This document shows, in pieces, positions 1 through 19,922 of a stretch of 27,490 nucleotides of DNA. The position numbers and the translations under genes were made by a program. Source of the stretch: Candidatus Thorarchaeota archaeon (GTDB lineage Archaea > Asgardarchaeota > Thorarchaeia > Thorarchaeales > Thorarchaeaceae). Positions within the stretch are counted from its first letter, which is position 1. The number at the start of each line of letters is the position of its first letter. Location: positions 1-27,490 of the forward strand of contig JAFGAR010000035.1 in NCBI GenBank assembly GCA_016933575.1. The letters run 5' to 3'. The notes under the pieces were generated by a model, which was given only the letters and a program-made list of their open reading frames with translations, was not told the origin of the DNA and did not search any database.

Positions 1-100
1 CGACTCTGTGAGGTCAGATGCGTGTCAGGACAACCTCACGATCCTATCTCTGGACTATTGTATTTAAAGACCTATAAGAATGGTTCAGTAAACATCAAAG

Positions 101-140: not shown

Positions 141-506
141 ACCCTCTAATCGGAAATCAAAACGTCCATCATAATGTCTTGGTTCAGGAACAACTCTTGA
201 GTAGTTTTGAAAAAAAGGAAGTCGGTGGTCGTCGAGGAGTTTTCGCAGAAACCGATTTGGTAGATTTGAATCAAGTGAAATGAGTACACCATCGTGAATG
301 ACTCCAATTAGGTCGAAGTTTGTCTTTCTGTGAGGTGCAGAATTCTCTCTGATGAAGAACTTCTTACCAGGAATCATCAATTCCTTCATTCTGCCAGGGT
401 TTGGGACGAAGACATCCACAATTGAATCATCGACTCTTACCTTAGCTAGAAAACGATTTGGTCGCTCAACAAAATAAGCCTCTAGAACTCGTTTCTTTGA
501 TGTCAC
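138..506 (-). pseudogene. sfsA: Truncated DNA/RNA nuclease SfsA (N-terminal half only)
   Basis: SfsA motifs RPNRF, VPNPGRMKEL, RKTNFDL, DSNLPN and GRFDF are present. The ORF stops at 122 aa, before the catalytic EVK motif (SfsA is normally about 230 aa), and no minus-strand frame downstream resumes the family pattern. Confidence 0.85.
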
Positions 507-617
507 CTATACTCCACTCGACATCGAGGTGAGGATATCCTTGATTAATAGAACTTGAGCTTTGTACATGATAATTATAACGGGAAGACCTATCACTGAT
601 TTTACTTGTTATAAGCA

Positions 618-1256: not shown

Positions 1257-1265
1257 AAAGCAATT

Positions 1266-2366: not shown

Positions 2367-2566
2367 AATGACCCATCTTGAAGTAAGTTAATTGACCAAT
2401 CAAAATTGCTCAAACAACTAATGCGATGATGGGGACCAAATCATCCCGGAGAGATAGCCGAATCTAATGAAATTAAGAAATACGAAGGCACTACATGCTA
2501 GAGAGTTCTATATGGAATTGATACTAGACACATTGTACTACAGGATCTGGGAGATCAGCGCCCACC

Positions 2567-4840: not shown

Positions 4841-4849
4841 ACTCACACA

Positions 4850-5806
4850 TTAGATGAGATTGTTAAAGAAATCAGTAAGGTCAATATTCCCCCCACTGAT
4901 TATGACACCCACTCGTTTGATCTTCACTTTTGATTTCATCTTTAGTAGTCCTGCTAATGATACAGCACCTGATGGTTCAACAACGAGTTTCATTCGTTCC
5001 CAGAGCAATTTCATTGCTTGTACAATTTCCTCTTCAGTCACTAGGACTATGTCATCAACAAGCTTTCGGATAATCTCAAATGTCAGGTCACCTAATTGAG
5101 TTCTAAGGCCATCAGCAATCGTATTAGGATTTACACTGGGGAATATTCGACCTGCTTTATATGAACGATAAGCATCATCAGCATTAGCTGGTTCAACTGC
5201 AATCACCTTGGTCATTGGAGATAGTCCTTTGGCAGCTATAGCAGTACCACTGATTAAACCACCACCTCCTACGGGAGCCAGAACATAATCGAGTGTTCCT
5301 ACCTCATTAAGAAGCTCTATGGTTGCTGTGCCAGCTCCTGCAATTATTCGAGGATTATTGTAGGGATGAATCAGAGTGAATCCATGTTTTTCAATCAGAT
5401 CGTTCGCAACAGATACTCGACTCTCAACCGTATTCTTGCAAAACACTATTGTAGCTCCATATTCCCGTGTTGCTTGGACTTTTACATTTGGAGAATTTTC
5501 AGGCATAACGATTGTTGCGTGAATTCCAAGCATTGAAGCAGCCAGTGCCAGAGCTTGTGCATGGTTACCGGAGCTATGTGCAATTACTCCCTTTGCACGT
5601 TCTTCAGGAGTCAGTTGAGATACTGTGTTGAAAGCTCCTCTGAATTTGAAAGCACCGACCCTCTGAAAATTCTCACATTTGAAGAAGGCTTGACCATCTA
5701 TCATCCTATTAATAGTACTGGAGGTCATAACAGGAGTCTTGATAATTGCATCTTTAATTCTGACATAGGCATCCTGAATGTCTTGCAGAGTGATCATAAA
5801 ACTCAA
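4850..5806 (-). CDS. PLP-dependent serine racemase / serine-threonine dehydratase family enzyme (no regulatory ACT domain)
   Basis: FKCENFQRVGAFKFRGA (PLP lysine), HSSGNHAQ, PVGGGGL, EPANADD, TIADG, SGGNIDL. Alternative start ATG 5797. Confidence 0.92.
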   Translation of the reverse strand: MSFMITLQDIQDAYVRIKDAIIKTPVMTSSTINRMIDGQAFFKCENFQRVGAFKFRGAFNTVSQLTPEERAKGVIAHSSGNHAQALALAASMLGIHATIVMPENSPNVKVQATREYGATIVFCKNTVESRVSVANDLIEKHGFTLIHPYNNPRIIAGAGTATIELLNEVGTLDYVLAPVGGGGLISGTAIAAKGLSPMTKVIAVEPANADDAYRSYKAGRIFPSVNPNTIADGLRTQLGDLTFEIIRKLVDDIVLVTEEEIVQAMKLLWERMKLVVEPSGAVSLAGLLKMKSKVKIKRVGVIISGGNIDLTDFFNNLI

Positions 5807-5960
5807 GGGACCTGCACTGCTGAAAAGGATTCCTTAGAATGGCACAATAGGTCTTGAGTATTGATTCCTGATTCTACGCAGACTATTAATACAACATAAT
5901 ATATTCTCAGAGATAGGAGTAAAGAGGCTCCTCGTAAATCAAATTCCGGTAAGTGGTACA

Positions 5961-6452
5961 ATGAAAGGAATTCGGAGGAAAGAGAAAGCCATTAAATCCA
6001 AAGAGGAAATGATGGCAACTCTTGAAAAGACAAAATACATCACAATTGCTATGTGCTTGGAGAACGAACCATATCTTGTCACTCTGAGTCATGGTTATTC
6101 TCGCGAGAAAAACTGCATCTATTTTCACTGTGCACAAGAAGGAAAGAAAATTGATATTCTACGAGTGAATGGAACTGTTTGGGGGCAAGCGATAAACGAC
6201 TTAGGATACGTGCCCGGTTCTTGCGACCATCTCTTCGTCACCACACAATTCAGGGGAAAAGTCACCTTCATTCAAGATATTGTTGAGAAAGAACTTGCTC
6301 TCAAGACGATGATCCATCAACTCGAACCAGATCCAGGGAAAGTGATCGAAGAGCAGATTACAGAGAGCTCACTCCAACGAGTCAATATAGGTAGAATCGA
6401 TATTGATTTTTTGAGTGGAAAGAAATCGAAAGAGACAATCATCTCTCTCTAA
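5961..6452 (+). CDS. NimA-like / pyridoxamine 5'-phosphate oxidase-family flavin-binding protein
   Basis: IRRKEKAI, PYLVTLSHGY and IYFHCAQEGKKIDIL fit the split-barrel NimA family. Confidence 0.85.
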   Translation: MKGIRRKEKAIKSKEEMMATLEKTKYITIAMCLENEPYLVTLSHGYSREKNCIYFHCAQEGKKIDILRVNGTVWGQAINDLGYVPGSCDHLFVTTQFRGKVTFIQDIVEKELALKTMIHQLEPDPGKVIEEQITESSLQRVNIGRIDIDFLSGKKSKETIISL

Positions 6453-6846
6453 TCTGCGATAGATTTTCCAAGATTGATAATGCATCTCGGACAGATTCGT
6501 AAGGAACAAAGAGGTGATCATGAAAATAGGCAGATACTACATTGACACTGATACCACCCTCTGCCAGTGCTTTTGTCAGAGCCGCTAGGAATCCAATTGC
6601 GGACAAATCAGAATGGATTGTGAGTGTGATGAGACCCCAAATCCCTTCATATTCAAGTCCGTGAAGATCTGCAATTTCCTTTCTAACTACTATTGTGATA
6701 GCTTCTTGCTCATGAAAAATTAAAAGCGGGGTCTCTTGCAGGTCATTCAGGTCCTTGTAATTTGTTGTAGAGAATACGAATTCACCTGGAATCAATACAG
6801 GTGACATATTCTTGACCAAGGAATCTAGATTCCGTTCTCCGCTCAT
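6439..6846 (-). CDS. Tandem ACT-domain protein (DUF2241/ACT_3 + ACT_7 type)
   Basis: MSGERNL..L...MSPVL..GEFVF, ITLTIHSDLSAIGFLAAL and ISVNVVSAYFHDHLFVP. Confidence 0.88.
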   Translation of the reverse strand: MSGERNLDSLVKNMSPVLIPGEFVFSTTNYKDLNDLQETPLLIFHEQEAITIVVRKEIADLHGLEYEGIWGLITLTIHSDLSAIGFLAALTKALAEGGISVNVVSAYFHDHLFVPYESVRDALSILENLSQIRER

Positions 6847-6852
6847 ATTAGT

Positions 6853-7368
6853 TCACTTATTCTTATTTCCAAAGGTCTCCCAAGAAACAATTTCATGTAG
6901 TGATAATCGAGTACTTGTCCGCTCCTGATCACCATAACCAACAGAAACTGCGCATATGACCCGAAAGTCTTCAGGAATATTCAATAATTGTCTAAATGCT
7001 GGTTCTATGTCAGTATCGCGCACTCCCATCCAGCATGTGCTTAGTCCCTGATGGTAAGCTGCAAGTAGCATGTTTTGCACAGCATTGTGTGGGTCAGCAA
7101 GATGATATTTTGGATGCTTCGTAGGGTCTCCAAGGACTACAATGACAACTGGAGATTCTTTCATGAACCGACCATAAGCATGAGCCTCAGCAAGTCTTGA
7201 ACGAATTGAATGGTCACGAACCACAATAAAATGCCATGGTTGTTTATTCGAGGCTGAAGGAGCCCATCGACCAGCTTGAAGAATTGTGTCGATTTTTTCG
7301 TCGGAGACTTCAGTAGGTTTGTACTTCCGAATGCTTCGTCGTTCTCTGATTGCTTTGATAACGTCCAT
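6853..7368 (-). CDS. Nitroreductase family protein
   Basis: RRSIRKY, WAPSASNKQPWHFIVV and NMLLAAYHQGLSTCWMG. Confidence 0.93.
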   Translation of the reverse strand: MDVIKAIRERRSIRKYKPTEVSDEKIDTILQAGRWAPSASNKQPWHFIVVRDHSIRSRLAEAHAYGRFMKESPVVIVVLGDPTKHPKYHLADPHNAVQNMLLAAYHQGLSTCWMGVRDTDIEPAFRQLLNIPEDFRVICAVSVGYGDQERTSTRLSLHEIVSWETFGNKNK

Positions 7369-7504
7369 GATAGTTCATTTATTCAATAACACACCTCATT
7401 ATGAAACCTGCGATTTATGACACAGAAAAAAGCGCTCAAATAGTAAACCTAAAAGGCTGAACGAAACTGCGCTCACTTCTAGACCACTACCGGAGTGGAT
7501 AGTT

Positions 7505-8941
7505 ATTCTAAAAACCCAGCAAAGAGAACTGACAAGTGTCGGTATTGACATCGGGTCCTCGACATCTCATGTTGTATTCAGCAAGATTGTATTAGAGAAA
7601 AATCTCAAGCATCCAACCGAAAAATACGAGATTGTTGACAGAGAGATTTTGCATTCTGGCCCGATTCATCTTACACCTTTCAAAGACCCCAAGACCATTG
7701 ACTTCGTTGCACTCCGAGACCTCCTTCTCGAGGATTATCGCGCAGCAGGTATCGGAGTTACAGATATTGATACAGGCGCAGTGATCATAACTGGAGAAAC
7801 AGCGAAAAAGAGCAATGCAGAATGGATTGTGAATGCACTGGCTGGCGAGAGTGGAAAATTTGTAGCTGCTACTGCTGGTCCAAATTTTGAATCCGTTCTT
7901 GCTGCATATGGCTCAGGAGCAGTTGCACGGTCGAGCATCACAGACAAGACTATCATGAACGCAGACATAGGAGGAGGATCCTCCAATATTGCGGTCTGTA
8001 GGGATGGGCGAGTTGTTGCCACAGCTGCCATCAACGTTGGTGGAAGACTTATTGCCACTGATGATTATGGAACAATTACCCGATTAGAAGATACTGGCAA
8101 GAAGGTAGCCTCATTGGTAGGCTATGATTTACATCTGGGTCAGAAACTCACAGATGATGATAAACAAAAGATAGCAGATACACTTGCGGATGCACTCATA
8201 GAAAGTCTCCAATCTAAGAATACTCTAGACTGTACAAGATTGTTGATGATGACTCAACCTTTGGAATACAATGAACCAATTGATATCATTACTTTTTCAG
8301 GTGGGGTAGCAGAATATATCTATGAAAATGAAAAGGACGAGTTCAATGACCTAGGGGCCCGATTGGCTCGTTCGATCATGTCAAAGGCTCAGAGCATTGG
8401 ACTACCAGTAGACAGACCAGACCAGAGAATCCGTGCAACAGTTATAGGTGCAGGTTCCTTTAGTCTACAGGTCAGTGGATCGACAACATTTCTATCATCT
8501 GGTCTTGAATATCCGATTCGTAATCTTCCAGTTATAGTACCGAACACCCCCAGACGGAAAGCATCAGCAGTGGAAATAGAGAAAGCAATCAAGAATGCGC
8601 TTCATAGGTTTGACCTAACAGAGGGCAATGATAGACTCATCCTCTCATTTAATGATGCAGTGAGACCATCGTACGAGAATTTGGCTGAATTTGCACGGGG
8701 AGTTGTCGCGGCACTCCCAAACACTGTTGCAACTAACCAACCAATCATGATGTGTTTTGATACAGATGTTGGAAACAGCGTTGGAAATATCATGCGTCGC
8801 GAGACCGGTATATCAAACGAAATCCTCTCCATTGATGAAATCTCTTTGAGAGAGGGAGATTTCATTGACATTGGTGCACCGATAATTGAAGATGTTGTCG
8901 TCCCTGTCGTTGTTAAGACTCTCGTATTTGATGTTGATTAA
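7505..8941 (+). CDS. eutA: Ethanolamine ammonia-lyase reactivating factor EutA (ASKHA ATPase); true start lies upstream of the tracked 7649 and is apparently non-canonical
   Basis: In frame upstream of 7649 the sequence encodes LTSVGIDIGSSTSHVVFS (from 7529). Further motifs: TGAVIITGETAKK, FVAATAGPNFESVLA, NADIGGGSSN, FSGGVAEYIY, IRATVIGAG, IDEISLREGDFIDIG, VPVVVKTLVF. Start at ATT 7505 is inferred from SD spacing. Confidence 0.88.
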   Translation: MLKTQQRELTSVGIDIGSSTSHVVFSKIVLEKNLKHPTEKYEIVDREILHSGPIHLTPFKDPKTIDFVALRDLLLEDYRAAGIGVTDIDTGAVIITGETAKKSNAEWIVNALAGESGKFVAATAGPNFESVLAAYGSGAVARSSITDKTIMNADIGGGSSNIAVCRDGRVVATAAINVGGRLIATDDYGTITRLEDTGKKVASLVGYDLHLGQKLTDDDKQKIADTLADALIESLQSKNTLDCTRLLMMTQPLEYNEPIDIITFSGGVAEYIYENEKDEFNDLGARLARSIMSKAQSIGLPVDRPDQRIRATVIGAGSFSLQVSGSTTFLSSGLEYPIRNLPVIVPNTPRRKASAVEIEKAIKNALHRFDLTEGNDRLILSFNDAVRPSYENLAEFARGVVAALPNTVATNQPIMMCFDTDVGNSVGNIMRRETGISNEILSIDEISLREGDFIDIGAPIIEDVVVPVVVKTLVFDVD

Positions 8942-8960
8942 ATATAGTGAGGTGAAATCC

Positions 8961-9827
8961 TTGTCCACTATCAGGAAATTGATGATCTCTGACAAAGAAG
9001 ATGTACTTGAGATCTCTCGACACATTTGGGATGGACATGACTACCTTCCACATATATTTGATAAAATTATGAATGATTGTAGTAGTCATATATTTGGTGC
9101 AGAAGTTAATGGCAAAATCATGGGAGTTGCGAATCTTAGGCTAGTTGAAGAGGGAAAAATTGGTTGGATGGAAGCTCTTAGAGTCCATCCAGAAGTAAGA
9201 GGATTAGGGATTGCTAGAAAACTTACGGAACGTCTAGTAGATGAAGCTAAGCAATTAGGAGTTGAGAAACTCCGTTATGCAACAGCATTTGATAATGACG
9301 CCTCTCTCAAATTGGCATCTAATATTGGTATGAAAAAAGTTGACGAATTTGCAATTAGATGGTTCAATTACTCAGATACTAAAGATCATAATATCATTGC
9401 ATCACAACTTCAGCAAGTCTCAGGGAAAGAATTCTATAAATGCCTGACAGGTCAATCAAAGGTGGACACGAAAGGACACATTGTTTATGATTGGAAAGTC
9501 ATTGATGTTACATTGAAGGGGCTTGAGGATCTGGAAGAATCTGTAGAGTACTGGGTTGAGAAGTCAGGTGAAATTCTACTTTCAGCCTCAATTGGTATTC
9601 TTCACTATTCTAATCATGGCTCTGCGTGGGATTTTACTATCTATGCTTCGAATCGTGAAACCTTTCTTTCACAGATGGTCTGTCATCTGGAGAGAATGGT
9701 TGTGCATAATACTGCCGTTGGCTCTTGTATTGTCCAGCCAGAGTTTGAATCAATCTTATTACACGAATTCAAGTTTTCTGATATTGATGATACAACAAAA
9801 ATGTTACTACTAGAACGGCAACTCTAA
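8961..9827 (+). CDS. GNAT family N-acetyltransferase
   Basis: IWDGHDYLP and acetyl-CoA motif A (WMEALRVHPEVRGLGIA). SD GAGGTGA at 8949-8955 supports TTG 8961 rather than 8886, which would overlap eutA. Confidence 0.88.
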   Translation: MSTIRKLMISDKEDVLEISRHIWDGHDYLPHIFDKIMNDCSSHIFGAEVNGKIMGVANLRLVEEGKIGWMEALRVHPEVRGLGIARKLTERLVDEAKQLGVEKLRYATAFDNDASLKLASNIGMKKVDEFAIRWFNYSDTKDHNIIASQLQQVSGKEFYKCLTGQSKVDTKGHIVYDWKVIDVTLKGLEDLEESVEYWVEKSGEILLSASIGILHYSNHGSAWDFTIYASNRETFLSQMVCHLERMVVHNTAVGSCIVQPEFESILLHEFKFSDIDDTTKMLLLERQL

Positions 9828-11035
9828 GTTTTTTTCTTGTTTCTCAGTTTTCGAACTTGAGAAGTCAGAATATAGTCTACAGGAACGGTGATCCAATCTT
9901 CTGGTGCAACTTGCATAACATCTGCTTTAGGAATCCGAATTGGCTCGTCTTCCCACCACATCAGATGAATATCATCATCCCAGACCTTGTATGTTTCCTT
10001 TATTGCTGGTCTATAACGATTCATAAAAACGAAACCGAGTATTGTTAGGAATGGTAGGGGTATCTGCAAATCGGAATTCATAACAAAGATACCAGATGTT
10101 ATGAAAATAATGATTGTATTGATCAGAGAAAATAGAATGGTTGGGAGAATATCTCCAAGTAGACCTATTCGTAATACTTGCCTTTTTTCAATCATCCCAT
10201 CAAGGCATCTGAATATATCGTTAATGAATCTGAAACGTAGGAAGCTTAGTGCAGCAAATATCGCGAATGCCTCAATTGTTAAGGAGCTAATGTACACAAA
10301 TGATGCTAACAGAGATTCTCTCAGAAGAGGTCCATAGAATCCAATATTGTAAGAGTAAGATATAGAGGTCATCCACACTTCATAATACCAATAACTGTTA
10401 ATTGTCACAAATATGGGAGTAAAGAATACGCCAATCCATAAAATGGTCGCGAAGATTTTATTTCGACTCAGTTGCAAGAAAGGATATGACTCAATATCTC
10501 TCATGGTTAGACCATGCATTTCCTGTGGGGAGGATGTTCTCACAACGAATCTCTTGATAAGTGGGAGACCTATAAACACTGGAATAATTAGAGAAGGAAG
10601 TACGAACAACCGTTCCATTAGATAATAAATGGGACTGACCCACCACATTTCTGTAAATAAAAGAATATACAATATAATTGGTAGAACAAGTGTAATCCCA
10701 GCAGCCAGGAGACCCCGAGGCCACATTCTTTGATTGACTGATTTCTTTGCAACCTTATATGCAAATACCATAGCTGGGAATGAGAGTAAAATTCCTAAGA
10801 TAAAGTTACGACCAAAGATTGTCAAATTGGTAAGATAAAATGAAAGATCGTCAAATAATACTTCAAAATAGGAATTGTATTGTGGTGTGTAAAGAAAGCA
10901 AGTCGTATATGGTGGAAACATGCTAGTGACATCATCAAGATTGATTGAGCCACTCATGGGTATCAGCATAATGAGAAGCGCTCTCAAGAAGAGGTTGATG
11001 GGTTCTTTGAAGCCCCTCACAAGATTCGACATCAT
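9824..11035 (-). CDS. Uncharacterised polytopic membrane protein (paralog of 23564..24685)
   Basis: About 8 hydrophobic segments and ordered motifs shared with the 23564 ORF. Start ATG 11035/11032 was chosen by comparison with the paralog; the ORF is open to 11104. Confidence 0.75.
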   Translation of the reverse strand: MMSNLVRGFKEPINLFLRALLIMLIPMSGSINLDDVTSMFPPYTTCFLYTPQYNSYFEVLFDDLSFYLTNLTIFGRNFILGILLSFPAMVFAYKVAKKSVNQRMWPRGLLAAGITLVLPIILYILLFTEMWWVSPIYYLMERLFVLPSLIIPVFIGLPLIKRFVVRTSSPQEMHGLTMRDIESYPFLQLSRNKIFATILWIGVFFTPIFVTINSYWYYEVWMTSISYSYNIGFYGPLLRESLLASFVYISSLTIEAFAIFAALSFLRFRFINDIFRCLDGMIEKRQVLRIGLLGDILPTILFSLINTIIIFITSGIFVMNSDLQIPLPFLTILGFVFMNRYRPAIKETYKVWDDDIHLMWWEDEPIRIPKADVMQVAPEDWITVPVDYILTSQVRKLRNKKKT

Positions 11036-11156
11036 TCCAGGATAAGTGAAAACAACGAAGCCATATAAAAATGACCAACTGGATAAGGTATCTCGTCGTT
11101 GCAAAAGTCATATAATAGCCCTGTGAGATAGCAATCTTGTCAGAGAAGGCGACATC

Positions 11157-12074
11157 ATGCAGACCACTACTATAACAATTACACCCCCCGATGCATTCAC
11201 GCAACCATTTGAATTCATTATATTTTACATCAATCAATTCCTTCCCTATATCATACTAGTTGGCACATTGATACTGGTAATGATTGTTTATCTAATTGTG
11301 ACAAGAATTGCTAAAAGCTCCCTCCAAGCAATGGGAATGGGAATAGAGGCTTCTTCAGGGATTGTACTTATTCTAAGACTCGTATTCTTCATGGCTGCTA
11401 TCATGATTATAATAGGTACTTTTGAAGCTAGTTTATCCACACTATTGTCTATTACCGCACTCTTTGGTACAGCTTTGGGTCTTGCATTTTCGCAAGCTCT
11501 AGGCAATATTGTAAGTGGTCTGTATGTGCTTGTCACACGTCCTTTTAGAATCGGAGACTATGTGAGAATAGGTACAGTAGAGGGATTGGTCAGAGAAATC
11601 ACACTGAATTATACGAGAATTCTCCTACCTGATGAAACAAAACAACTCGTACCAAACAACAAGGTTGTCGGGAGTGAAGTGACAAATTTCAGAATTGAGA
11701 TGTCTAAGTATATCGAAGAGAGGCAGGAAGAGATTAAAGATGCAGAAGAAGAAAACCAGGGAAGAAGATATGTGCGTTCACTTGAGAGTACCCTAGATCG
11801 ATTAAGAACCCTGACGACTGATTCAAACGGGTACCGATATACTTTCGATTTATCCATTCACATGAGCTACAATCACAAAGAGATGAGGAAGAAATTCGAT
11901 GAGGTCTGTGATAGATGGGCATCTGTCTTTTTGACTAGACCAATTTACTTTGTTTGGGCTAAACCAGTTGCCGCAATCACCTATCGTTTTGCATTCATAG
12001 TCCAAGATCCAATGATAATCATCAAAAGAAGCTCTGATTTCATGGAAGATCTTCTTGAACTCTATATGACATAG
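11157..12074 (+). CDS. mscS: Small-conductance mechanosensitive channel (MscS family)
   Basis: Three TM helices, then GTALGLAFSQALGNIVSG, RPFRIGDYVRIG, GLVREITLNYTRI, VPNNKV. Confidence 0.92.
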   Translation: MQTTTITITPPDAFTQPFEFIIFYINQFLPYIILVGTLILVMIVYLIVTRIAKSSLQAMGMGIEASSGIVLILRLVFFMAAIMIIIGTFEASLSTLLSITALFGTALGLAFSQALGNIVSGLYVLVTRPFRIGDYVRIGTVEGLVREITLNYTRILLPDETKQLVPNNKVVGSEVTNFRIEMSKYIEERQEEIKDAEEENQGRRYVRSLESTLDRLRTLTTDSNGYRYTFDLSIHMSYNHKEMRKKFDEVCDRWASVFLTRPIYFVWAKPVAAITYRFAFIVQDPMIIIKRSSDFMEDLLELYMT

Positions 12075-12087
12075 AGAATCATTCTAT

Positions 12088-12525
12088 CTACTTTGTATAT
12101 CGTGTTTCAAGATCTACAAACCATGGTGCAACCTGTGCATCATCAACCCGGTCAGATGAAGGGAGATATGGTTTGATATCTAAAATTGGAGTCATATCAT
12201 TAGCGTCTATATGGTCGACGCGAATTCGGTGCTTCTTTGTTTGAATTTCCAGTATTTTAGAAATTGTATGACCAATTGGATTTGGGCGAGCAGGGGAACG
12301 GCAAGCAAAGACTCCAGATGGAATAGGACCTTTCCCTCTGGGGGGATTCGCAAGAGTAATACTTCGCTTCTCTGGAGTGTCCATTCCATCAATCCACCAG
12401 AGTATAATGATATGAGAAAATAGTTCAAGATGGGTTGTGGCATCCCAAAAATCCTCTCTAATGACAAGATAATTTTCGTTGTCCGTCTTCTGTACCGTTC
12501 CAATCGGATTGACGATGTATGGCAT
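12088..12525 (-). CDS. trmO: tRNA (t6A37) N6-methyltransferase TrmO/TsaA-like
   Basis: PIGTV, LELFSHIIILWW, GVFACRSPARPNPIG and TPILDIKPY. Confidence 0.9.
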   Translation of the reverse strand: MPYIVNPIGTVQKTDNENYLVIREDFWDATTHLELFSHIIILWWIDGMDTPEKRSITLANPPRGKGPIPSGVFACRSPARPNPIGHTISKILEIQTKKHRIRVDHIDANDMTPILDIKPYLPSSDRVDDAQVAPWFVDLETRYTK

Positions 12526-12596
12526 TGCTTACACTCCATGGATCACTATCGAGATAACAACAGATTAATCCAACTATCTAACAACTCGAGGAACAG

Positions 12597-13091
12597 GTGT
12601 TATGCATATTGGATGAAAAAGCAGTTTCAGAGTCAAAAACTGTAATGACGCAGACAGTCTTTCCTAATGATGTCAATAACAATGGTACTCTCTATGGAGG
12701 AAGATTACTAGATTGGATAGACACACTGGGGGCAATAGTTGCAAAGAGACATAGTCGTAGTGCAGTCGTCACGGTCTCCATTGATTCTCTTAACTTTCTT
12801 GCCCCCACACGTCAAAGAGATATTGTGACCCTTGAGGCTTGGGTCAATTATGTAGGAAGAACCTCTATGGAGATTGAAGTACGAGTCAGCTCAGAGAATC
12901 CTATTACGGCTGAAACTGCTAAGAATTGTAGAGCATTTCTGACCTATGTTGCCATGGATGAGTATGGGAATCCAAAAGAAGTTCCGCCATTGAAACTGAC
13001 TTCTGAAGAGGAGAGAATCCGATTTGAGATGGCTAAGGAGAGAAGGTCAGAGCGACTTAGACATCGCGATCTTGGTGCTGTTGAGTGGTAA
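12597..13091 (+). CDS. Acyl-CoA thioesterase (hotdog fold, YciA-like); start possibly TTG 12609
   Basis: VFPNDVNNNGTLYGGRLLDWID, VTVSIDSLNFLAP, YVGRTSMEIEV and AFLTYVAMD. Confidence 0.93.
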   Translation: MLCILDEKAVSESKTVMTQTVFPNDVNNNGTLYGGRLLDWIDTLGAIVAKRHSRSAVVTVSIDSLNFLAPTRQRDIVTLEAWVNYVGRTSMEIEVRVSSENPITAETAKNCRAFLTYVAMDEYGNPKEVPPLKLTSEEERIRFEMAKERRSERLRHRDLGAVEW

Positions 13092-13775
13092 TCACCAGAG
13101 TGTCTTCTTGACCTTATCCTTTTGCTCTGAACTCAGACCTTCGAATCCCAAGAGATTCTCCTTTGGTATTCCCCAGATATCATCTGAAATGCATTCGAAG
13201 TGATGCCATCTATAGTTCAAGTGATCCATATAATAGGTAGGCTCTCCGACTCGAAGGGCATCCTTTTCGATGTTGTTCCCGCAAGTCTGACATTTGGCAC
13301 GACTGGACTTTGCCGCTTCAATCTTCCAATTATCCTTTGGAATGAACTTTCTTTTTGCAGCTGTTCCAAGATTCATCAGAAACATCTCAGGATCGTCTCC
13401 TACAAGTTCAGGCGTGAATCTTAGAGTGAATTTATCATATTCAGAAATGTCAAATGATACATCGACATTGTTGTTCTTGTAAGACTTCTTGTACTTAGCA
13501 CCTGGAGGATATTGGTTATTCTTTTTCATGAATGTAAATACTTGCTCAGTTAGAATCTTAGTCGCAGCTCGTTTATCCTCTAGATCAACAACGCCGCTTG
13601 CTTTTGCATAATGATAATCTGTATTTATGATGGACATCCCTGTATCAAGTTCTTCCTTGCGCTTCGTTAGGATGACAGAACCAACTGGTACCTTTCCTGT
13701 AATCTTTTGCATAGAGAAATTACTTGAATCAACATAATATGCCCAACTATGATTGAAAGTAACCCAATCAGTCAA
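13092..13775 (-). CDS. Protein with an unknown N-terminal domain and a C-terminal PARP-type zinc finger
   Basis: IEAAKSSRAKCQTC...IEKDALRVG...RWHHFEC...LLGFEGLSSEQKDKVKK gives C-x2-C-x26-H-x2-C with the zf-PARP flanking signatures. SD GAGGTG + 6 nt + TTG 13775; the ORF is open to GTG 13784. Confidence 0.85.
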   Translation of the reverse strand: MTDWVTFNHSWAYYVDSSNFSMQKITGKVPVGSVILTKRKEELDTGMSIINTDYHYAKASGVVDLEDKRAATKILTEQVFTFMKKNNQYPPGAKYKKSYKNNNVDVSFDISEYDKFTLRFTPELVGDDPEMFLMNLGTAAKRKFIPKDNWKIEAAKSSRAKCQTCGNNIEKDALRVGEPTYYMDHLNYRWHHFECISDDIWGIPKENLLGFEGLSSEQKDKVKKTLW

Positions 13776-13893
13776 AACATGCACCTCAAGATATCATAAT
13801 GCATTTTCCATATAAAATCTCATCTAAAATTCGAATGCACATCTCGATGCATTAAAAGGGGGTATAGACTTCATAATTGAACGGGTTGCAACA

Positions 13894-15003
13894 ATGAAGA
13901 CAATCAAGATTGGTAATGTGAAGAGTGAATCTGGCAAAATTAATTATGGATTCATAGATGCAATGGACTTGCCAACTGGAACAAAGGACAGAATCCCAGT
14001 AGTCATTGCTCAAGGGAAAAATGAAGGACCAACATTCTTTCTTACTGCGAATATTCATGGTAACGAACTAACTGGTGTTGCAGTTCTACATGAACTTGTT
14101 ACAGAAGATTTGGTTAAAGATCTGAAGGGAACTATTGTTTCAATACCAACACTCAATCCTACTGCTCTAAGATTATACCAAAGGCATCCAGAATATCAAG
14201 ATGAAGACCCTAACCGACAATTTCCAGAAGGTCCGTTCGCAAGACCAGATGAAGATGATGAAGATAAGAAATACCCAAAGCCCTTCGAACAGGTTGCAAA
14301 TCTGCTTTATTCATACTTTAAAAAATATGCAGACTATCATCTCGACATCCACAATCATTCTCTACGCTCAGTACCGTATTCAATCATAGACCGTATTTTC
14401 TATGATGGAGATGATGACAAGAAAGAAGCAGAAGAACTAGCAAAGAAACAATTGGGCATGGTGGAAGCTTTTGGAGCTGGAGCAATGATGACAGCAGATT
14501 TTCCACCAAAGAAATACCTGAATCTGAAATATCATCGTTCACTGTCAGGTGCCGTACTCAACTCGTTGAGAATACCAGCCTTTACCGTAGAATTGGGGAG
14601 CAATAGTGTTCTCTATCCTGAAATCATCGCAGGGGCTGTGAAAGCTACAAGAAACCTGCTTCGATGGGCAGGGATGCTTAATTCTCCTAAAGAGAAAATC
14701 ACTGAATATTCCGTCCCAATTCCTGAATATCGTCTTAGACGAATTGAACATCCCAGAGCAAACCAATCCGGGATAATCAAGTTATTAGTTGGACCAGGTG
14801 AAAAAGTGACTAAGGGACAAGCTATAGCAAAGATCACGGATATTCATGGAAGACCAATAGGCGAAGGCATTATCAAGACTGAGTATGATGGATACATGAT
14901 AGCACTCCGTGACCAGATGACCATCTACCCAAATATGGGCATTGCAGAGATGGGTATCAGAGATGTGGATGAGATTGTAGTGCCAATGCCTCCGAAAAAA
15001 TGA
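13894..15003 (+). CDS. Succinylglutamate desuccinylase/aspartoacylase family (M14) zinc hydrolase
   Basis: ANIHGNE (HxxE), DPNRQFP, HLDIH, FTVELG and a C-terminal barrel-sandwich segment (SGII...GEKVTKGQAIAKI). Confidence 0.9.
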   Translation: MKTIKIGNVKSESGKINYGFIDAMDLPTGTKDRIPVVIAQGKNEGPTFFLTANIHGNELTGVAVLHELVTEDLVKDLKGTIVSIPTLNPTALRLYQRHPEYQDEDPNRQFPEGPFARPDEDDEDKKYPKPFEQVANLLYSYFKKYADYHLDIHNHSLRSVPYSIIDRIFYDGDDDKKEAEELAKKQLGMVEAFGAGAMMTADFPPKKYLNLKYHRSLSGAVLNSLRIPAFTVELGSNSVLYPEIIAGAVKATRNLLRWAGMLNSPKEKITEYSVPIPEYRLRRIEHPRANQSGIIKLLVGPGEKVTKGQAIAKITDIHGRPIGEGIIKTEYDGYMIALRDQMTIYPNMGIAEMGIRDVDEIVVPMPPKK

Positions 15004-15008: not shown

Positions 15009-16739
15009 TTATCCGGACGTAAAGAAGAGCTTAGAGACCGCAGAGCGAAGATCATCCTCTGATAGATATCCCGACATTTGATCCTCACCCAGATGGATAG
15101 TGGGCAGAGCAGGGAGATCTTCCTCTGATACACCACTTGCAGGATCATCCACATTTATTGTCTTTATAGAAGAGGTACTGACTCCCATTTCAGAGAGAAT
15201 TGAAACAAGACTATTCAACACTGGACCACAAAAAACGCAGTGGTCAGATTTGTAAAACAGAATAGTTGGAATCCTTAGTTCTTCCTTCCATGCAGGAAGT
15301 AAGACAACAAACTTTGAACCTTGACTATAATCACCAGATACTCTGTCTTCCACCCAGATTTTGCCGCCTATATCAGATAGATATCTATCAACTACTGTGA
15401 GGCTAAGACCTCTTCCTGCAAGTTGCTCTTTAACCTCTCCGCCTCTTCTAAAGATCTGAGTTTTCTCCGCATCATTCATACCTGGACCATAGTCTTCAAA
15501 TTCGATGCGGACCATATCCCCAACTTCTGTTAGTTCAGCACTGATATCGACCTGTACAATATCATTTGTATCAATACTACTGCAGTAGTGGATAATATTG
15601 AAGAACACGTACCAGAGAAAAGCATGTCCCACGACTTCAAATTTAATATTCTCAATATTCGTACTAATCTCGAGAGTCTTCCATTCAAAATCTCGCATGG
15701 CTTCACGAGTGGCTTTATTGAAATGTGGAAGCAGACGAGTCTGTACCTTATCTGGAGGGGATTGATCCAAAGATATCAGAATTCCCATATTTGCTATCAT
15801 TCGTCCAGCATTCCGGAGACTCCATGCAGTTTCGCTCAATAGTCCTTTGAGTCGGTCAGGTAATTCCAATGAGATGCTTAAATCTTCCAGAGCAAACAGA
15901 ACGTTCTGATTTGTCATGTTCAAATCGCTAGTCATCACTTCGAGGTAGAGATTCGCTCTCTCACTCTCTTCTCTTAGGTGCTGTTCAATGATTCGTCGAC
16001 GTGTAATATCTATGGCAGTAAGTCCAATCTCTATAGGTCTTTCAATACCTGACGAAAGCGCCCGGGATGAAACGCTTGCCCAGATTGATTTACCATCTTT
16101 GCCGAGCATCTCCATCTCAAGGCCAGATATGCTCTTTCCTCGAATTACTTCTCGTATGATATCTTCGCCAGGGTTGTAGCCGGGTTTAGGTTCTGGAAGA
16201 AAATCTGTGATGAGTCGCCCAATCATATCTTCAGCATCGAATCTAAGTAACTCTTCAGCAGCAGCATTTACTTGTTCGATCATTCCATTTCGATTAAGCG
16301 TGAAATATGCAACAGGAGACATATCATAAAGTGAGGCAAATCGATTCTCTAACTCAGTGACAGCTGCTTCTAGTTCTATCACCTTTGAGATATTCTTAAT
16401 GCTAGCGATGACAGCTGGATGTCCCTGCATAATAGTCGATGTTGGTTTTATTTCTACGTGCAGAATGCTCTTATTCTTGGATACTAATCGAGTTGAGAAT
16501 TTTGATAGGTTCTTCCCTGAAATGAGCGACTCTATCTTCTGGCTGTCATGTCTGCGTGAGGTGGGTTCCACAAGATCCTCAAAGGCGGTATCAATGATTT
16601 CTTCTGACTCGTACTCTATCATCTCAGCAAATGCCTCATTTGTCATTATGATATCCTCATCCTGAATGACAATCATGCCTTCATTGACAATATCAAGGAT
16701 CTTCTGAGTCCATTCCGCATCCTGTGTGGGATTTGACAA
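15009..16739 (-). CDS. PAS-PAS / pseudo-histidine kinase / C-terminal thioredoxin-like (CVFC) fusion protein
   Basis: Two PAS domains. H-box LEVMTSDLN has Ser where His is expected. Degenerate HATPase (FNIIHYC, EDYGPGM, GRGLSL, GGKIWVED, GSKFVVLLP). The tail FYKSDHCVFCGPV...INVD...ALPTI is thioredoxin-like. SD GAGGTG + 6 nt + TTG 16739; the ORF is open to 16748. Confidence 0.85.
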   Translation of the reverse strand: MSNPTQDAEWTQKILDIVNEGMIVIQDEDIIMTNEAFAEMIEYESEEIIDTAFEDLVEPTSRRHDSQKIESLISGKNLSKFSTRLVSKNKSILHVEIKPTSTIMQGHPAVIASIKNISKVIELEAAVTELENRFASLYDMSPVAYFTLNRNGMIEQVNAAAEELLRFDAEDMIGRLITDFLPEPKPGYNPGEDIIREVIRGKSISGLEMEMLGKDGKSIWASVSSRALSSGIERPIEIGLTAIDITRRRIIEQHLREESERANLYLEVMTSDLNMTNQNVLFALEDLSISLELPDRLKGLLSETAWSLRNAGRMIANMGILISLDQSPPDKVQTRLLPHFNKATREAMRDFEWKTLEISTNIENIKFEVVGHAFLWYVFFNIIHYCSSIDTNDIVQVDISAELTEVGDMVRIEFEDYGPGMNDAEKTQIFRRGGEVKEQLAGRGLSLTVVDRYLSDIGGKIWVEDRVSGDYSQGSKFVVLLPAWKEELRIPTILFYKSDHCVFCGPVLNSLVSILSEMGVSTSSIKTINVDDPASGVSEEDLPALPTIHLGEDQMSGYLSEDDLRSAVSKLFFTSG

Positions 16740-16800
16740 TCTCAACACCTCAAGTTATTTCCAATACACTGTCATTGATAAAAGAATGTAGGGAGTCATA

Positions 16801-16855: not shown

Positions 16856-18865
16856 CTATACCTTCCAATCGAGTATTATATCAAAAACTCTGAGATTAGA
16901 GCCATGATAAACATAGGTTGATGCTCTTGCAAACTGAATACCAATGTACTTCACTACACGATTAGGATTGATCGTACTTGAGTCATGTGTAAGTACAGTT
17001 CCACTTCCTAATTGACTCTTCACTGTATTACTTCCTGAATCAAACCAGAATTTCCAGTCCACTCTCCAAGAACCGGTTTTCGTGGCAACCAGTGTCTGAT
17101 CGATTACACCGTTCTCAAATTGATATTCGATGTAGCCTTTTGATGAGGAACTATACCATGAATCATAGAGACAGAAGACTTCAATGAGGTCATAATTATC
17201 ATCATAGAGAGTCACTATCAAATCACCCATTTTATTCAGAGAGCTGACCAACTGCAAGTCAGCCTTGAAGAGTACGATATCCTTGAGCTTGGGACCCATG
17301 GTAATTGTGTAGTAAAATGCGGGTCCATGTTTCCAAGCTGTTGACGAAGCAATATCATCACAGTAGAAGTACTCATTGCCCCAGTAGCTGCCTACCTTCA
17401 ATGTACCAGTCGAATCAAGAGTCCTGTATGTTTCAAAAACTCCAGTTGCGTCAAACCAACTATCTGTTGTATCACATGGTAAGTGCACATAGAAGTAGTC
17501 ATTTGGCCCATCATACTTGTAGTGATACCGCATATCTGCTGTGTACCATTGAATTCTACCATTTGTTGTTGTCCCATCAACATCACCATAGGTTGTCCGG
17601 GAATCATCAAAACCTGCATAGATGTAAATCAATTCTAGTTCTTCATCTTCAGCTCGATCATACCATTCCCAAGTAGGATCCGAAAGAATCCATGTCCATG
17701 AACCATCCTTAGGAGCCCATATCTCTAGTAAAGCATGTGCAAAAGTGGGGCTGTAGACGACTAGATATCTTACAGGAATACCCATTGCTCGGTACATACT
17801 TGTAGCAAGCACTGCATATTCATCACAAACTCCACGGTAGTTACTTGTAGCCATGATGTATGTATCGGAAAATACTGCTGAAACTGCATATTGATAGTCT
17901 GCATCATAGGTCATGCGATCGTGGACTTCACTATTCAATTCCTGACCAATTGAGTATACTGAAGATGCAGAACTAGTAGTTTTGTCTAGCCAAGAGGCTG
18001 CAGAATAACGTACACTCCAAGATTCTGGATGGAATATCTTGTAAGAGGATGACCAACTGAATCCATCATTTGAGCATCCTTCCCAGATATAATTGGGATT
18101 TCCAGTTGCTGTTGACATGGGATCTGATGGTGGTGTAGGCAGGCTTCCGAATATCTGGACAAATTCATTTCCATATTGATGGTAGTATGTTATTCCGCCT
18201 GATATCTCAGCAACCCCTGTTTTGAGACCTACAGAGGTATTGGGAACATACGTTCCGAGAGATACTGTCCTTGTAGTAAACGCATTTACTACTGCAGAGC
18301 TACTAACATACCATTCTTGACTTGTCCCTTCTTTTCCTCTAAAAGTACATGTTACGGTAATGGAATAATCATACATATTATGCAACTCAAAGCTCACTGT
18401 TGCCAGCTTGCCAATAGACCATACGCTAGGAACAGCGACTACACCATATGCATATCCACCACCAGGATCGCCTGGGTCCAATTCATAATCAAATCTGTTT
18501 CGATAACTGTTGTCCAGATCGCCAAATAATGGATATGATTCAACTTCACTATACTCTCCATTAAGTTCAATACTGTGTTCTTGCAAAATTTCATCGGGAA
18601 GACTAGTTCTAACAATACATTCCCCGGATTCAGGGTAATCGAATATTTTCGGAACCATTATGTCTTCAGATTTCTCAGCTGGTCGATATCCTATACGAGG
18701 ATCGTATGGGGGTATTGAACTTCTCATGTCTTCAGATGCGTGCTGGTCCAGAATCGACTCGATCATTGGACTCCCCACCTGAATCGTTGAAGAGCTGAAT
18801 AAGAATAGAAGGACAATGCCTAGAGCAAAAAACTTCAAGTTTCTATTTATCTTTGGAATTCTCAT
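16856..18865 (-). CDS. Secreted transglutaminase-like (Cys-His-Asp) domain protein with flanking beta-rich domains
   Basis: Basic + hydrophobic signal peptide. Catalytic core GVCDEYAVLATSMYRAMGIPVRY, HALLEIW, WILSDPTW. S/T/Y/W-rich extracellular composition. Confidence 0.88.
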   Translation of the reverse strand: MRIPKINRNLKFFALGIVLLFLFSSSTIQVGSPMIESILDQHASEDMRSSIPPYDPRIGYRPAEKSEDIMVPKIFDYPESGECIVRTSLPDEILQEHSIELNGEYSEVESYPLFGDLDNSYRNRFDYELDPGDPGGGYAYGVVAVPSVWSIGKLATVSFELHNMYDYSITVTCTFRGKEGTSQEWYVSSSAVVNAFTTRTVSLGTYVPNTSVGLKTGVAEISGGITYYHQYGNEFVQIFGSLPTPPSDPMSTATGNPNYIWEGCSNDGFSWSSSYKIFHPESWSVRYSAASWLDKTTSSASSVYSIGQELNSEVHDRMTYDADYQYAVSAVFSDTYIMATSNYRGVCDEYAVLATSMYRAMGIPVRYLVVYSPTFAHALLEIWAPKDGSWTWILSDPTWEWYDRAEDEELELIYIYAGFDDSRTTYGDVDGTTTNGRIQWYTADMRYHYKYDGPNDYFYVHLPCDTTDSWFDATGVFETYRTLDSTGTLKVGSYWGNEYFYCDDIASSTAWKHGPAFYYTITMGPKLKDIVLFKADLQLVSSLNKMGDLIVTLYDDNYDLIEVFCLYDSWYSSSSKGYIEYQFENGVIDQTLVATKTGSWRVDWKFWFDSGSNTVKSQLGSGTVLTHDSSTINPNRVVKYIGIQFARASTYVYHGSNLRVFDIILDWKV

Positions 18866-19112: not shown

Positions 19113-19922
19113 ATGTCACAGTACAGTAATAGAAGTGTGGTTATGATTGGTTTGATTATTTTTTTCTTCATATTCACATTGACACAAATTCCTATCGCTA
19201 AAGCTAGTGTGAGCTGGATGGATGATTTCAACGATGAATCATTGGATGATTGGATTGTGACAAGAGGCGTATTTTCAGCTGAGAAACAGACTCTCTGGGC
19301 TTATGGTTCAGAAAGCAGAATTTCGAATCGAGCATACCACATCTGTAATATCACAGCAGGTAAATGGAGATTCGATATTCTTGTACGACATGAATGGCTA
19401 TGGGACTATCATCCTCCATCAATTAGATTCATGGTAAGTAGTCTTAACGATTTAGATTGGCAGGGATATGTGGTTGATTTCTATACTATCTATCGTTCCA
19501 CAGGTGACGTTTTTGCAGTCTACTTAAGAAAACATACTACAACTTGGGCATATATTTCGCATTACGAATTTGATAGACCATCTAGCGGATGGCAAGATGT
19601 GGAGATCATAAGAGAATCAAATGGACACATAAAGATCCTACTGAATAGTACAGAGATAATTGATGCCATCGATACTTCAATCAATGAATCGAAGTATTTT
19701 GCGTTTGATACAGAGGATTGTGTCCAGACAGTCTTTGATCCAGCAACTCATACTGATTCATTCGTGCGAGCAAAAGAAAGTCCTATGCTAGATAACATCA
19801 TAGTTTATGAGACCCCTGGGACAACTGCATTAATTCGGAGTATGATATTAATCATAACCTGTGCTACAGCAGGAATAATCACTATCCTCTATTGTCGTGA
19901 TGAGTTATCACAAAGACGATGA
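19113..19922 (+). CDS. Exported, C-terminally membrane-anchored beta-sandwich (lectin/ConA-like) surface protein
   Basis: Signal peptide ending AKA, then WMDDFND..LDDW, GWQDVEIIRESNGHIKILLN, LDNIIV and a C-terminal TM helix. The fold is an inference. Confidence 0.7.
   Translation: MSQYSNRSVVMIGLIIFFFIFTLTQIPIAKASVSWMDDFNDESLDDWIVTRGVFSAEKQTLWAYGSESRISNRAYHICNITAGKWRFDILVRHEWLWDYHPPSIRFMVSSLNDLDWQGYVVDFYTIYRSTGDVFAVYLRKHTTTWAYISHYEFDRPSSGWQDVEIIRESNGHIKILLNSTEIIDAIDTSINESKYFAFDTEDCVQTVFDPATHTDSFVRAKESPMLDNIIVYETPGTTALIRSMILIITCATAGIITILYCRDELSQRR

Follow-up and report, generated by a model that had tools for sequence, protein, structure and literature searches.

A histidine-less PAS-PAS kinase homologue with a C-terminal CxxC thioredoxin domain in Thorarchaeota: a candidate thiol- or metal-linked regulator

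Introduction

To our knowledge, only a handful of pseudo-histidine kinases have been described, DivL among them, and none of them shows so clear a path from an active kinase as the protein described here. Control of kinase output by the oxidation state of cysteine is familiar from RegB/PrrB and ArcB, which use a single Cys in the DHp or in the PAS linker, with no dedicated thioredoxin-fold domain. The gene analysed in this study lies in a stretch of 27,490 nucleotides (the window) of a Candidatus Thorarchaeota archaeon MAG (GCA_016933575.1, contig JAFGAR010000035.1; completeness 85.5%, contamination 6.9%), and encodes a kinase homologue without acceptor His, ending in a thioredoxin domain.

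DivL of Caulobacter crescentus is a pseudo-histidine kinase which regulates the intact kinase CckA through protein contacts (PMC4211667). The window protein shares with it multiple PAS domains and a conserved DHp-CA core without the acceptor His. However, DivL is bacterial, carries Tyr at the His position and has no thioredoxin domain; nor does it stem from a recent duplication of its target kinase, and for the window protein an interaction with a partner is putative. MsmS and RdmS of Methanosarcina acetivorans (MA_type 2 kinases) are redox sensors without H-box, which bind and hydrolyse ATP and are not autokinases (PMC11784639). Like the window protein they are archaeal, cytoplasmic and histidine kinase-like with no phospho-acceptor His, and cysteines have been implicated in their behaviour. 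In these two proteins, however, the whole H-box region is absent, a heme in the GAF domain does the sensing, ATP hydrolysis is kept and no thioredoxin domain exists, while the window protein lacks the Mg-binding Asn and has a DHp that is intact save for the His.

A thioredoxin-fold domain and a histidine kinase core also occur in one polypeptide in SasA (1t4z), but there the domain is N-terminal, has no CxxC and binds KaiC, and the kinase is active. For the tail itself, the nearest described proteins are the MJ0307/Mt0807 mini-thioredoxins (TIGR00411, PF13192; 1fo5, 1nho), with about 85 residues in beta-alpha-beta-beta-beta-alpha order, whose CxxC and xPT(I/V) motifs align with it over the full length. 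They are free-standing with a CPxC site, whereas the window tail has HC(V/I)FC, and its ancestral form has four extra Cys. No description of a C-terminal CxxC thioredoxin fused to a kinase core was found, and such a fusion is unmentioned in a census of archaeal two-component systems (PMC5847659) and in a survey of Asgard kinases (PMC10343646). A preliminary description of the window, made from its letters alone, had known of no characterised protein with this architecture; SasA is a characterised precedent, without the cysteines, for joining a thioredoxin fold to a histidine kinase.

Results and Discussion

Gene and domain organization

The His-less PAS-PAS-DHp-CA-Trx gene occupies 15009..16739 on the minus strand, encoding 576 aa from a TTG at 16739, with the stop codon at 15009-15011. 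A longer ORF (15009..16748, minus strand) was present in the ORF list, with a GTG start and 579 aa. An SD-like GAGGTG is located 6 nt before the TTG, and the database protein P0002, also of 576 aa, is 100% identical to the TTG-start product; TTG 16739 is thus likely to be the true start rather than GTG 16748, and it agrees with the coordinates of the preliminary description. Residue numbers throughout refer to the 579-aa frame from GTG 16748.

Two PAS domains form the N-terminal part. The first covers residues ~15-125 (16374..16706, minus strand; Pfam PAS_3 at residues 34-100, E 3e-6), and the second residues ~135-255 (15984..16346, minus strand; Pfam PAS_9/PAS at residues 136-252, E 1e-21). 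NCBIfam sensory_box also matched two stretches of the protein. In the consensus of the PAS domains we saw neither a LOV Cys nor a His plainly suited to binding heme. The product is a cytoplasmic PAS-PAS sensor built on a histidine-kinase core, and is presumably dimeric.

Catalytic residues of the kinase core

The DHp helical hairpin comprises residues 257-329 (15762..15980, minus strand), with helices 257-293 and 298-329 in the AF2 model. Pfam HisKA gave no match to this hairpin, but the model has the build of a class I (HisKA-type) kinase core, with the hairpin of a DHp four-helix bundle followed by a CA domain. With Foldseek, the DHp-CA model matched HK853, WalK and DivL (E 1e-11 to 4e-13) as well as CpxA, and among the full DHp-CA matches DivL (4q20) had the top target-normalised TM-score (TMt 0.71, rmsd 4.8). 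The DHp is the best-conserved part of the protein, with a within-clade identity of 0.84 in helix 1 and 0.74 in helix 2, and it is also the region closest to an intact paralogue ("type A", described below; identity 0.47-0.57).

Ser274 (codon 15927..15929, minus strand, read 15929-15927) stands at the phospho-acceptor His position (MT-S-DLNM) of the H-box stretch LYLEVMTSDLNMT in alignments to the intact kinase of the window (2567-4840, plus strand) and to type A. BLASTP against the former aligned MSHDFRN to MTSDLNM and ENIIENA to FNIIHYC, which puts other residues in place of the His and of the second N-box Asn, the one that binds Mg, just as the preliminary description had read them. In the DxxN phosphatase motif, Met stands where the +4 Asn should be. 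Among 111 full-length orthologues the His position is occupied by Ser in 89, Asn in 11, Thr in 6 and Gln in 5, and never by His (0/111). The residue is variable overall (S/N/T/Q/K), which argues against a new acceptor at this position; one might lie elsewhere.

The CA domain (HATPase_c, Bergerat fold) extends over residues ~335-487 (15288..15746, minus strand; Pfam HATPase_c at 394-486, E 5e-13), and was modelled by AF2 as an alpha/beta sandwich whose lid, residues 436-445, is disordered. In the degenerate N-box FNIIHY (15585..15602, minus strand), the loss is limited to the second Asn: the first, N384, is kept and invariant in the orthologues, while the Mg-binding Asn became Tyr388 (codon 15587-15585). 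The latter position is Y in 64, F in 31, N in 11 and H in 5 of the 111 orthologues, giving Y/F/H in 100/111. It was lost only in the genus-level clade of the window, where all 13 sampled sequences of the window's genus have Y/F/H; the 11 orthologues retaining N are deeper ones. The G1 box DYGPG (15480..15494, minus strand) and the G2 box GRGLSL (15399..15416, minus strand), which had been read as remaining, are indeed present and near-invariant, with the adenine-contacting Asp419 in 109/111 orthologues, G445 in 109/111 and G447 in 111/111.

Since the acceptor His is changed to Ser, the +4 Asn to Met and the Mg-binding Asn to Tyr, the protein is predicted to be incapable of canonical His phosphotransfer. 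Judging from the retained Asp419 and G2 box, nucleotide binding and even hydrolysis could persist.

The C-terminal thioredoxin domain

Residues 494-579 (86 residues; 15012..15269, minus strand) were assigned as an MJ0307-like mini-thioredoxin on the basis of AF2, Foldseek, VIA-align and profile comparison. The AF2 model of the tail has a pLDDT of 86.6 and a beta-alpha-beta...beta-beta-alpha topology. Every Foldseek match listed was a thioredoxin, a glutaredoxin or a thioredoxin fusion with probability 1.0, as were all 32 matches at E<=0.001, and VIA-align gave Z 9.6 with rmsd 3.1 over 85 residues. Among solved structures, the tail profile matched 1fo5/MJ0307 best (E 0.0095, full length). The tail alone gave no NCBIfam match, and in Pfam PF00085 at E 0.21, so that it scores below every curated cut-off. 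Because these searches were insignificant, homology was shown through structure, profile and standalone relatives, of which L006 from Thorarchaeota scored E 8.7e-9 against PF13192 and E 6e-15 against TIGR00411, with the TIGR00411 match under the trusted cut-off. By these models the tail is predicted to adopt a thioredoxin fold, as had been proposed from its motifs, and it appears nearest to the MJ0307 mini-thioredoxins through a transitive, profile-based link.

The active-site motif HCVFC is encoded at 15228..15242 (minus strand); in the AF2 model C504 belongs to the loop leading into helix 1, and C507, the first residue of that helix, to its first turn. None of the 111 orthologues departs from H503, C504, F506, C507 and P509. 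All 59 type A/B sequences have the CxxC too, and 55 of them the His in front of it. LPALPTI (15096..15116, minus strand) aligned to AVPTI of MJ0307; L545-P-A-L-P549 is invariant in the 111 orthologues, and Pro549 (15104-15102) directly precedes strand 3, at the cis-Pro position. The CVFC and cis-Pro-like motif of the preliminary description could be recovered in this way, with HCxFC and LPALP conserved throughout. The predicted arrangement of the CxxC and the cis-Pro, the latter assigned by position, is that of a canonical thioredoxin. Across ~170 sequences no tail residues vary less than the CxxC, the His in front of it and the cis-Pro.

Conservation and integrity of the gene

The full architecture was found with 100% coverage in >120 protein clusters, all from Thorarchaeota-type MAGs of many samples, and the fusion recurs in the genomes of ~60 species, which shows that no chimera is involved. 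His loss and CxxC are conserved together in all 111 orthologues. The dN/dS ratio is 0.05-0.15 in every domain, CA and Trx included; strong purifying selection thus acts on an uninterrupted reading frame, which upholds the earlier view of a maintained pseudokinase. The missing catalytic residues and the state of the MAG (85.5% complete, 6.9% contamination) would speak for a decaying pseudogene or an assembly chimera, but the open frame, the same architecture in >120 clusters, dN/dS of 0.05-0.15 and the conserved synteny rule this out, and the chance left to it is negligible.

The AstE/AspA-like and transglutaminase-like genes flanking the pseudokinase are not conserved in related loci, and the zf-PARP gene 3' of it occurs in just 4/32 loci. 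An operon partnership with these neighbours was rejected, since no immediate neighbour is conserved; the pseudokinase locus itself therefore gives no hint of a partner.

An intact paralogue and the order of losses

In relatives, synteny is conserved and an intact second copy (type A) lies about 17-20 kb downstream; both copies are present in 24/27 other genomes of the genus. Type A retains the His, the DxxN motif, the N-box Asn and the six-Cys thioredoxin tail, in all 16 genera of the family; the acceptor His was found in 30/30 type A sequences and the N-box Asn in all of them. The six Cys of the ancestral tail and of standalone relatives are those of a CxxxxC before strand 1 and of the CxFC, one at the end of strand 3 and one at the C-terminus. 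No type A copy was found in the 85.5%-complete assembly of the source organism, because its expected position is ~5 kb beyond the window and the contig start; its presence there is predicted from synteny.

Type A is divergent to genes for ArsR and a CPC-type P1B heavy-metal ATPase in 11/16 further genera, and DsrE-like genes also occur beside it; this context fits a thiol, metal or sulfur signal. In the genome of the source organism, a standalone six-Cys copy lies near NifU/IscS-like genes, a single case which is suggestive.

All His-less copies form one clade in the tree (SH-aLRT 100), inside which those without the Asn group together as a single sub-clade (support 99). The His-less clade goes back to a single duplication of an intact PAS-PAS-HK-Trx gene with six Cys. 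The intact partner bears the same tail, so the thioredoxin fusion is older than the His loss. The order of losses in the His-less clade was His, then the four accessory Cys, then the Mg-binding Asn. Four of the six tail Cys are gone in the window clade, and the window protein is the most degenerate state of the His-less clade. The linked intact type A paralogue, and the place of the window protein as the degenerate member of a paralogue pair, are new here.

Possible function

The protein is most likely a non-phosphorylating, thiol- or metal-linked regulator working with its intact paralogue in the manner of DivL; we consider this explanation as a whole to have somewhat better than an even chance. 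The parts differ in strength. That it is a maintained non-phosphorylating pseudokinase is very probable, and nearly as probable is that the CxxC is functionally essential, in redox or in metal binding, while action on or with the intact paralogue, for which the linked intact copy and the conserved DHp are circumstantial evidence, is a tentative proposal, a little short of an even chance. In this scheme the pseudokinase would regulate the pathway to which the intact paralogue belongs. Its conformation would be set by the PAS inputs together with the state of the CxxC (thiol, disulfide or metal-bound), and the signal would leave by protein-protein contact via the highly conserved DHp, whether in a heterodimer with the intact kinase, by docking to that kinase or by contact with its response regulator (cf. 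DivL/CckA), without any transfer of phosphate. We infer, as the preliminary description did, that PAS input is coupled to thiol chemistry or to a partner kinase.

The tail could instead be a metal- or Fe-S-binding module with metal occupancy as the signal rather than a thiol-disulfide site, which we regard as somewhat unlikely; the HCxxC of two subunits (a homodimer, or a heterodimer with type A) would then ligate Zn, Cu, Cd or an Fe-S cluster. This alternative to thiol-disulfide chemistry is raised by the six Cys conserved in the ancestral tail and the standalone relatives, and favoured by the His before the CxxC (invariant in 111 orthologues, present in 55/59 type A/B sequences), by the ArsR and CPC-type P1B ATPase genes divergent to type A in 11/16 further genera, and by the standalone copy near NifU/IscS-like genes. 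However, the gene context comes from the paralogue and not from the window gene, the window clade has dropped four of the six Cys with the classical CxxC and cis-Pro geometry retained, and MJ0307, the best solved profile match (E 0.0095), is a disulfide oxidoreductase. A metal module would be compatible with a pseudokinase regulator. The invariant, canonically placed CxxC and cis-Pro might also mean that the tail is the output, a PAS-gated disulfide reductase or isomerase for specific targets on a dead kinase core acting as dimeric scaffold. T4 glutaredoxin and NrdH have sites similar to CVFC, namely CVYC and CVQC, and NrdH is a structural match to the tail (Z 8.4), in line with such an enzyme. 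The same tail is nevertheless found on the intact kinase, whose obvious output is the kinase, no linked thioredoxin reductase or target gene was found, and the DHp instead of the tail is the most conserved region, which makes this reading unlikely. A mere protein-binding module of the KaiB or N-SasA kind, with structural cysteines, is very improbable: N-SasA (1t4z, Z 8.6) and KaiB (4kun, Z 8.3) match the tail structurally and the standalone relatives have weak KaiB Pfam matches, but the CxxC, the His before it and the cis-Pro are the most invariant tail residues in ~170 sequences, and KaiB and SasA lack catalytic cysteines (PMC3161067).

A phosphate-transferring enzyme was considered as well, in which the CA domain would bind ATP and phosphorylate in trans the REC-DHp protein of the window (618-1256), type A, or a Ser/Tyr substrate. 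Asp419 and the G1 and G2 boxes are kept, the Mg-binding Asn is present in deeper His-less orthologues, MsmS/RdmS bind and hydrolyse ATP without an H-box (PMC11784639), and the REC-DHp protein has a His without an ATPase. Such activity is nonetheless quite unlikely, as the Mg-binding Asn is Y/F/H in 13/13 sequences of the genus and 100/111 orthologues, the H-box of REC-DHp, LSHDITG, has no relation to the ERANLYLEVMT-x-DLN type, and the REC-DHp gene is 14 kb off with unrelated genes between.

The intact HK-Trx and its His-less paralogue might together make up a module of two proteins, whose thioredoxin domains would sense a thiol-disulfide, persulfide or metal signal or relay it between them, for conversion into kinase output. 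We regard this as unlikely. If true, the module would be a redox relay wired straight into a two-component system, and the loss series would record the change of a kinase into a dedicated allosteric redox subunit in Asgard archaea.

Significance

The scope of the finding is narrow, with the fusion confined to one Thorarchaeota-type family. This one archaeal family holds the intact ancestor type together with three successive degenerate states, all under purifying selection, and with these preserved the order of losses can be read directly and tested. In the prokaryotes most closely related to eukaryotes, such a fusion would tie two-component signalling to thiol or metal state by compact, genetically encoded means.

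Gene structure and domains of the pseudokinase

The ORF of the pseudokinase gene is on the minus strand and spans 15009-16748. An SD-like GAGGTG (16751-16746, minus strand; within window 16737-16751) lay 6 nt 5' of a TTG codon at 16739, and the identical database protein had 576 aa. The alternative GTG start at 16748 falls within this SD-like motif, so TTG 16739, the start taken in the preliminary description, is the probable one. Residues are numbered here from GTG 16748 (579 aa). With Pfam and NCBIfam, two PAS domains and one HATPase_c domain were found, while HisKA was not detected and the last ~90 residues had no match.

Lost and retained residues

All motifs and codons quoted for this protein in the preliminary description were present where it had placed them. 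When aligned by BLASTP with the intact kinase of the window (2567-4840, plus strand; PAS x4-HisKA-HATPase_c), MS-H-DFRN was paired with MT-S-DLNM and ENIIE-N-A with FNIIH-Y-C, and both replacements that had been proposed, of the acceptor His and of the second, Mg-binding Asn of the N-box, were confirmed. The protein kept the first Asn of the N-box, the Asp of G1 and the G2 box. When 111 full-length family members were aligned with MAFFT, the His position was occupied by Ser (89), Asn (11), Thr (6) or Gln (5) and never by His, and the Mg-Asn position by Tyr (64), Phe (31), Asn (11) or His (5). D419 and the G2 box (G445-x-G447) were nearly invariant, and H503, C504, F506, C507, P509 and L545-P-A-L-P549 of the tail were invariant.

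A search with residues 260-579 returned 213 proteins, and the best 120 clusters showed 53-75% identity and 100% query coverage, tail included; their named members were all Thorarchaeota/Promethearchaeota MAGs from many independent samples. The fusion thus recurs beyond this assembly. Overall dN/dS was 0.05-0.15 (Nei-Gojobori, five unsaturated pairs) and was similar in every domain, CA and Trx included. Both an assembly chimera and a pseudogene were ruled out by the full-length architecture conserved across independent samples together with these ratios. What is retained, and under selection, is the CxxC together with the cis-Pro position, the DHp and the residues of the nucleotide pocket; His, DxxN and Mg-Asn are lost.

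Within the clade of the window protein, identity was 0.84 in DHp helix 1, 0.74 in DHp helix 2/linker, 0.67 in PAS2, 0.65 in Trx, 0.60 in CA and 0.51 in PAS1. In the window protein, helix 1 was also the region most similar to type A, the intact paralogue, of the same genus (0.51-0.57). The AF2 model of residues 256-579 (pLDDT 85, pTM 0.69) contained a DHp hairpin of canonical form, a CA sandwich whose lid was disordered, and the Trx domain, and its DHp-CA part matched HK853, WalK, ZraS, CpxA and DivL in Foldseek. That the DHp is catalytically dead yet the best-conserved part of the protein suggests a surface for binding or dimerisation.

The C-terminal thioredoxin domain

The tail (residues 494-579) was modelled by AlphaFold2 from a 41-sequence alignment (pLDDT 86.6) with the topology beta1-alpha1-beta2 ... 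beta3-beta4-alpha3, in which C504 lies in the loop preceding alpha1, C507 in the first turn of alpha1 and P549 directly before beta3. All PDB matches listed by Foldseek were thioredoxins, glutaredoxins or thioredoxin fusions (probability 1.0, TM about 0.65), and 32 of at least 500 matches reached E<=0.001. A Foldseek-independent scan with VIA-align gave Z 9.6 for human Trx2, 8.6 for the N-terminal domain of SasA (1t4z), 8.4 for NrdH and 8.3 for KaiB, and the thioredoxin fold first proposed from the CxxC and a cis-Pro-like motif was borne out by these models and matches. The tail sequence alone stayed below threshold (PF00085, E 0.21; PfPDO 1a8l, E 0.8). A profile from 30 tails matched MJ0307 (1fo5) over its full length with E 0.0095, with CxxC and xPTI aligned. 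Four small standalone ORFs of the same genome were matched by the tail (E 5e-6 to 7e-4), and these relatives matched PF13192 (8.7e-9) and TIGR00411, the MJ0307 family (6e-15). On the structural matches, the profile match and the assignment of the standalone relatives, the tail is a divergent MJ0307-like mini-thioredoxin.

The intact paralogue and stepwise degeneration

When 400 genomes of the phylum were scanned with the tail, 84 of the 85 that belong to the window's family had it; most of these carried it at the end of two frames of about 590-610 aa, 17-20 kb apart on one contig. Forty tail-bearing genes from family genomes were retrieved for comparison. The second of the two genes, type A (L039-L058 and L060, e.g. 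G353:C5:113837-115615 and G342:C41:10455-12242 in relatives' genomes) has the same PAS-PAS-DHp-CA-Trx architecture and keeps the H-box His (MT-H-DLNN) with a DxxN phosphatase motif, as well as the N-box Asn, G1 and G2. Its tail carries HCxFC and four further conserved Cys, in CGRxxC before beta1, at the end of beta3 and in a C-terminal C(Y/F)P. Every one of the family's 16 genera had type A, and His-less copies were found in 11.

Standalone Thorarchaeota proteins of ~110 aa (P0141, P0142, P0145, P0149) form a family that shares the six-Cys pattern of the type A tail (CxxxxC, CxFC, IC and C-terminal CF). The six-Cys member of the window's own genome (L101:5250-5585, i.e. G000:C5:33749-34084, plus strand) adjoins a MarR-like HTH gene, and a NifU_N and class-V aminotransferase (IscU/IscS-like) pair lies 1.7 kb away.

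In an IQ-TREE tree of 60 sequences, read with a trait table, all 29 His-less sequences formed one clade (SH-aLRT 100); the outgroup was distant and the rooting uncertain, while the split between intact and His-less types was independent of the root. Basal His-less members (genera g16, g3, g11, g12) had lost the His (Q/S/K/T) and kept six tail Cys and the N-box Asn; intermediate ones (g4-g7, g9, g14) had two tail Cys and still the Asn; in the window's genus g1, one sub-clade with support 99, two tail Cys remained and the Asn was changed to Y/F/H. Read from the traits and the tree, under this uncertain rooting, the order of loss is His, then accessory Cys, then Mg-Asn. Of the 29 His-less copies, 27 had also replaced the +4 Asn of DxxN and two, both g12 sequences, kept it, and the CxxC and Pro of the tail were never lost in the 60-sequence set. 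The His-less clade had a single origin from an intact HK-Trx, to which it is linked.

Gene neighbourhoods

G342:C41 and G353:C5 were colinear with window 1-15000, in a genus-wide synteny including SfsA-like, REC-DHp, DinB-like polymerase, 4xPAS kinase and PALP enzyme genes. By this synteny type A would be expected about 5 kb past the window start, where the contig also ends; this position beyond the contig explains why it was not found in the 85.5%-complete assembly. The REC-DHp protein (618-1256, plus strand) has a REC domain (Pfam E 8e-23), then a short helical stretch whose H-box-like LSHDITG is not related to the ERANLYLEVMTxDLN type seen in the kinase pair, and no ATPase domain.

The pseudokinase had no conserved immediate neighbours in the related loci compared. 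An AstE/AspA-like (succinylglutamate desuccinylase/aspartoacylase) gene (13894-15003, plus strand), a transglutaminase-core gene (16856-18865, minus strand) and the ORF after it (19113-19922, plus strand) were missing from the region of same-genus G342:C41, which is colinear in other respects, and look like local insertions flanking the pseudokinase gene. In only 4 of the 32 related loci was the pseudokinase directly followed by the zf-PARP gene (13092-13784, minus strand), whose product has an unknown N-terminal domain; the sole copy in ~34 kb examined of G353 adjoins the intact type A kinase, just upstream.

Type A is divergent to an ArsR-family regulator and a 645-aa P1B ATPase (CPC, DKTGT and HP motifs). 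Among 16 further genera, the regulator was beside type A in 11, a full-length P1B ATPase in 11 and both in 9, and type A was convergent to a DsrE-like gene and a small membrane protein gene in 7. These ArsR, P1B ATPase and DsrE-like neighbours lend the ancestral system a metal, thiol or sulfur flavour; being the context of the paralogue, they bear on the window gene itself only indirectly.

Comparison with known systems and possible function

To our knowledge, SasA is the only characterised Trx-fold/HK fusion. Its Trx-fold domain is N-terminal and without cysteines (PMC3161067), whereas that of the pseudokinase is C-terminal with a CxxC. In function, DivL is the nearest known counterpart (PMC4211667); the archaeal redox sensors MsmS/RdmS, which lack the H-box and bind and hydrolyse ATP yet are not autokinases, are also close (PMC11784639). 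An HK-thioredoxin fusion was mentioned neither in the archaeal TCS census (PMC5847659) nor in the Asgard kinase survey (PMC10343646), and a prior description elsewhere may exist. Related Asgard architectures are known, namely PAS-Trx-...-HATPase_c of about 660 aa with an internal MJ0307-like Trx (P0202, P0239, P0228; "Asgard group archaeon") and Trx_3-V4R with an MJ0307-like thioredoxin domain (P0204, Jordarchaeales).

The pseudokinase is probably a non-phosphorylating sensor and regulator. Its tail, left with two Cys, could serve as a metal or Fe-S site, a reading compatible with such a regulator and possible at rather low probability. That the tail, with its invariant CxxC, is a catalytic output seems unlikely, and residual trans-kinase or ATPase activity in a protein with the nucleotide pocket kept and His and Mg-Asn lost is slightly less likely still. 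A KaiB-like binding module is very improbable.

As a regulator, the pseudokinase would have its protein-protein signalling through the DHp controlled by the PAS domains and by the CxxC state (thiol-disulfide or metal), and the target of this signalling would probably be the type A kinase or the regulator of type A.
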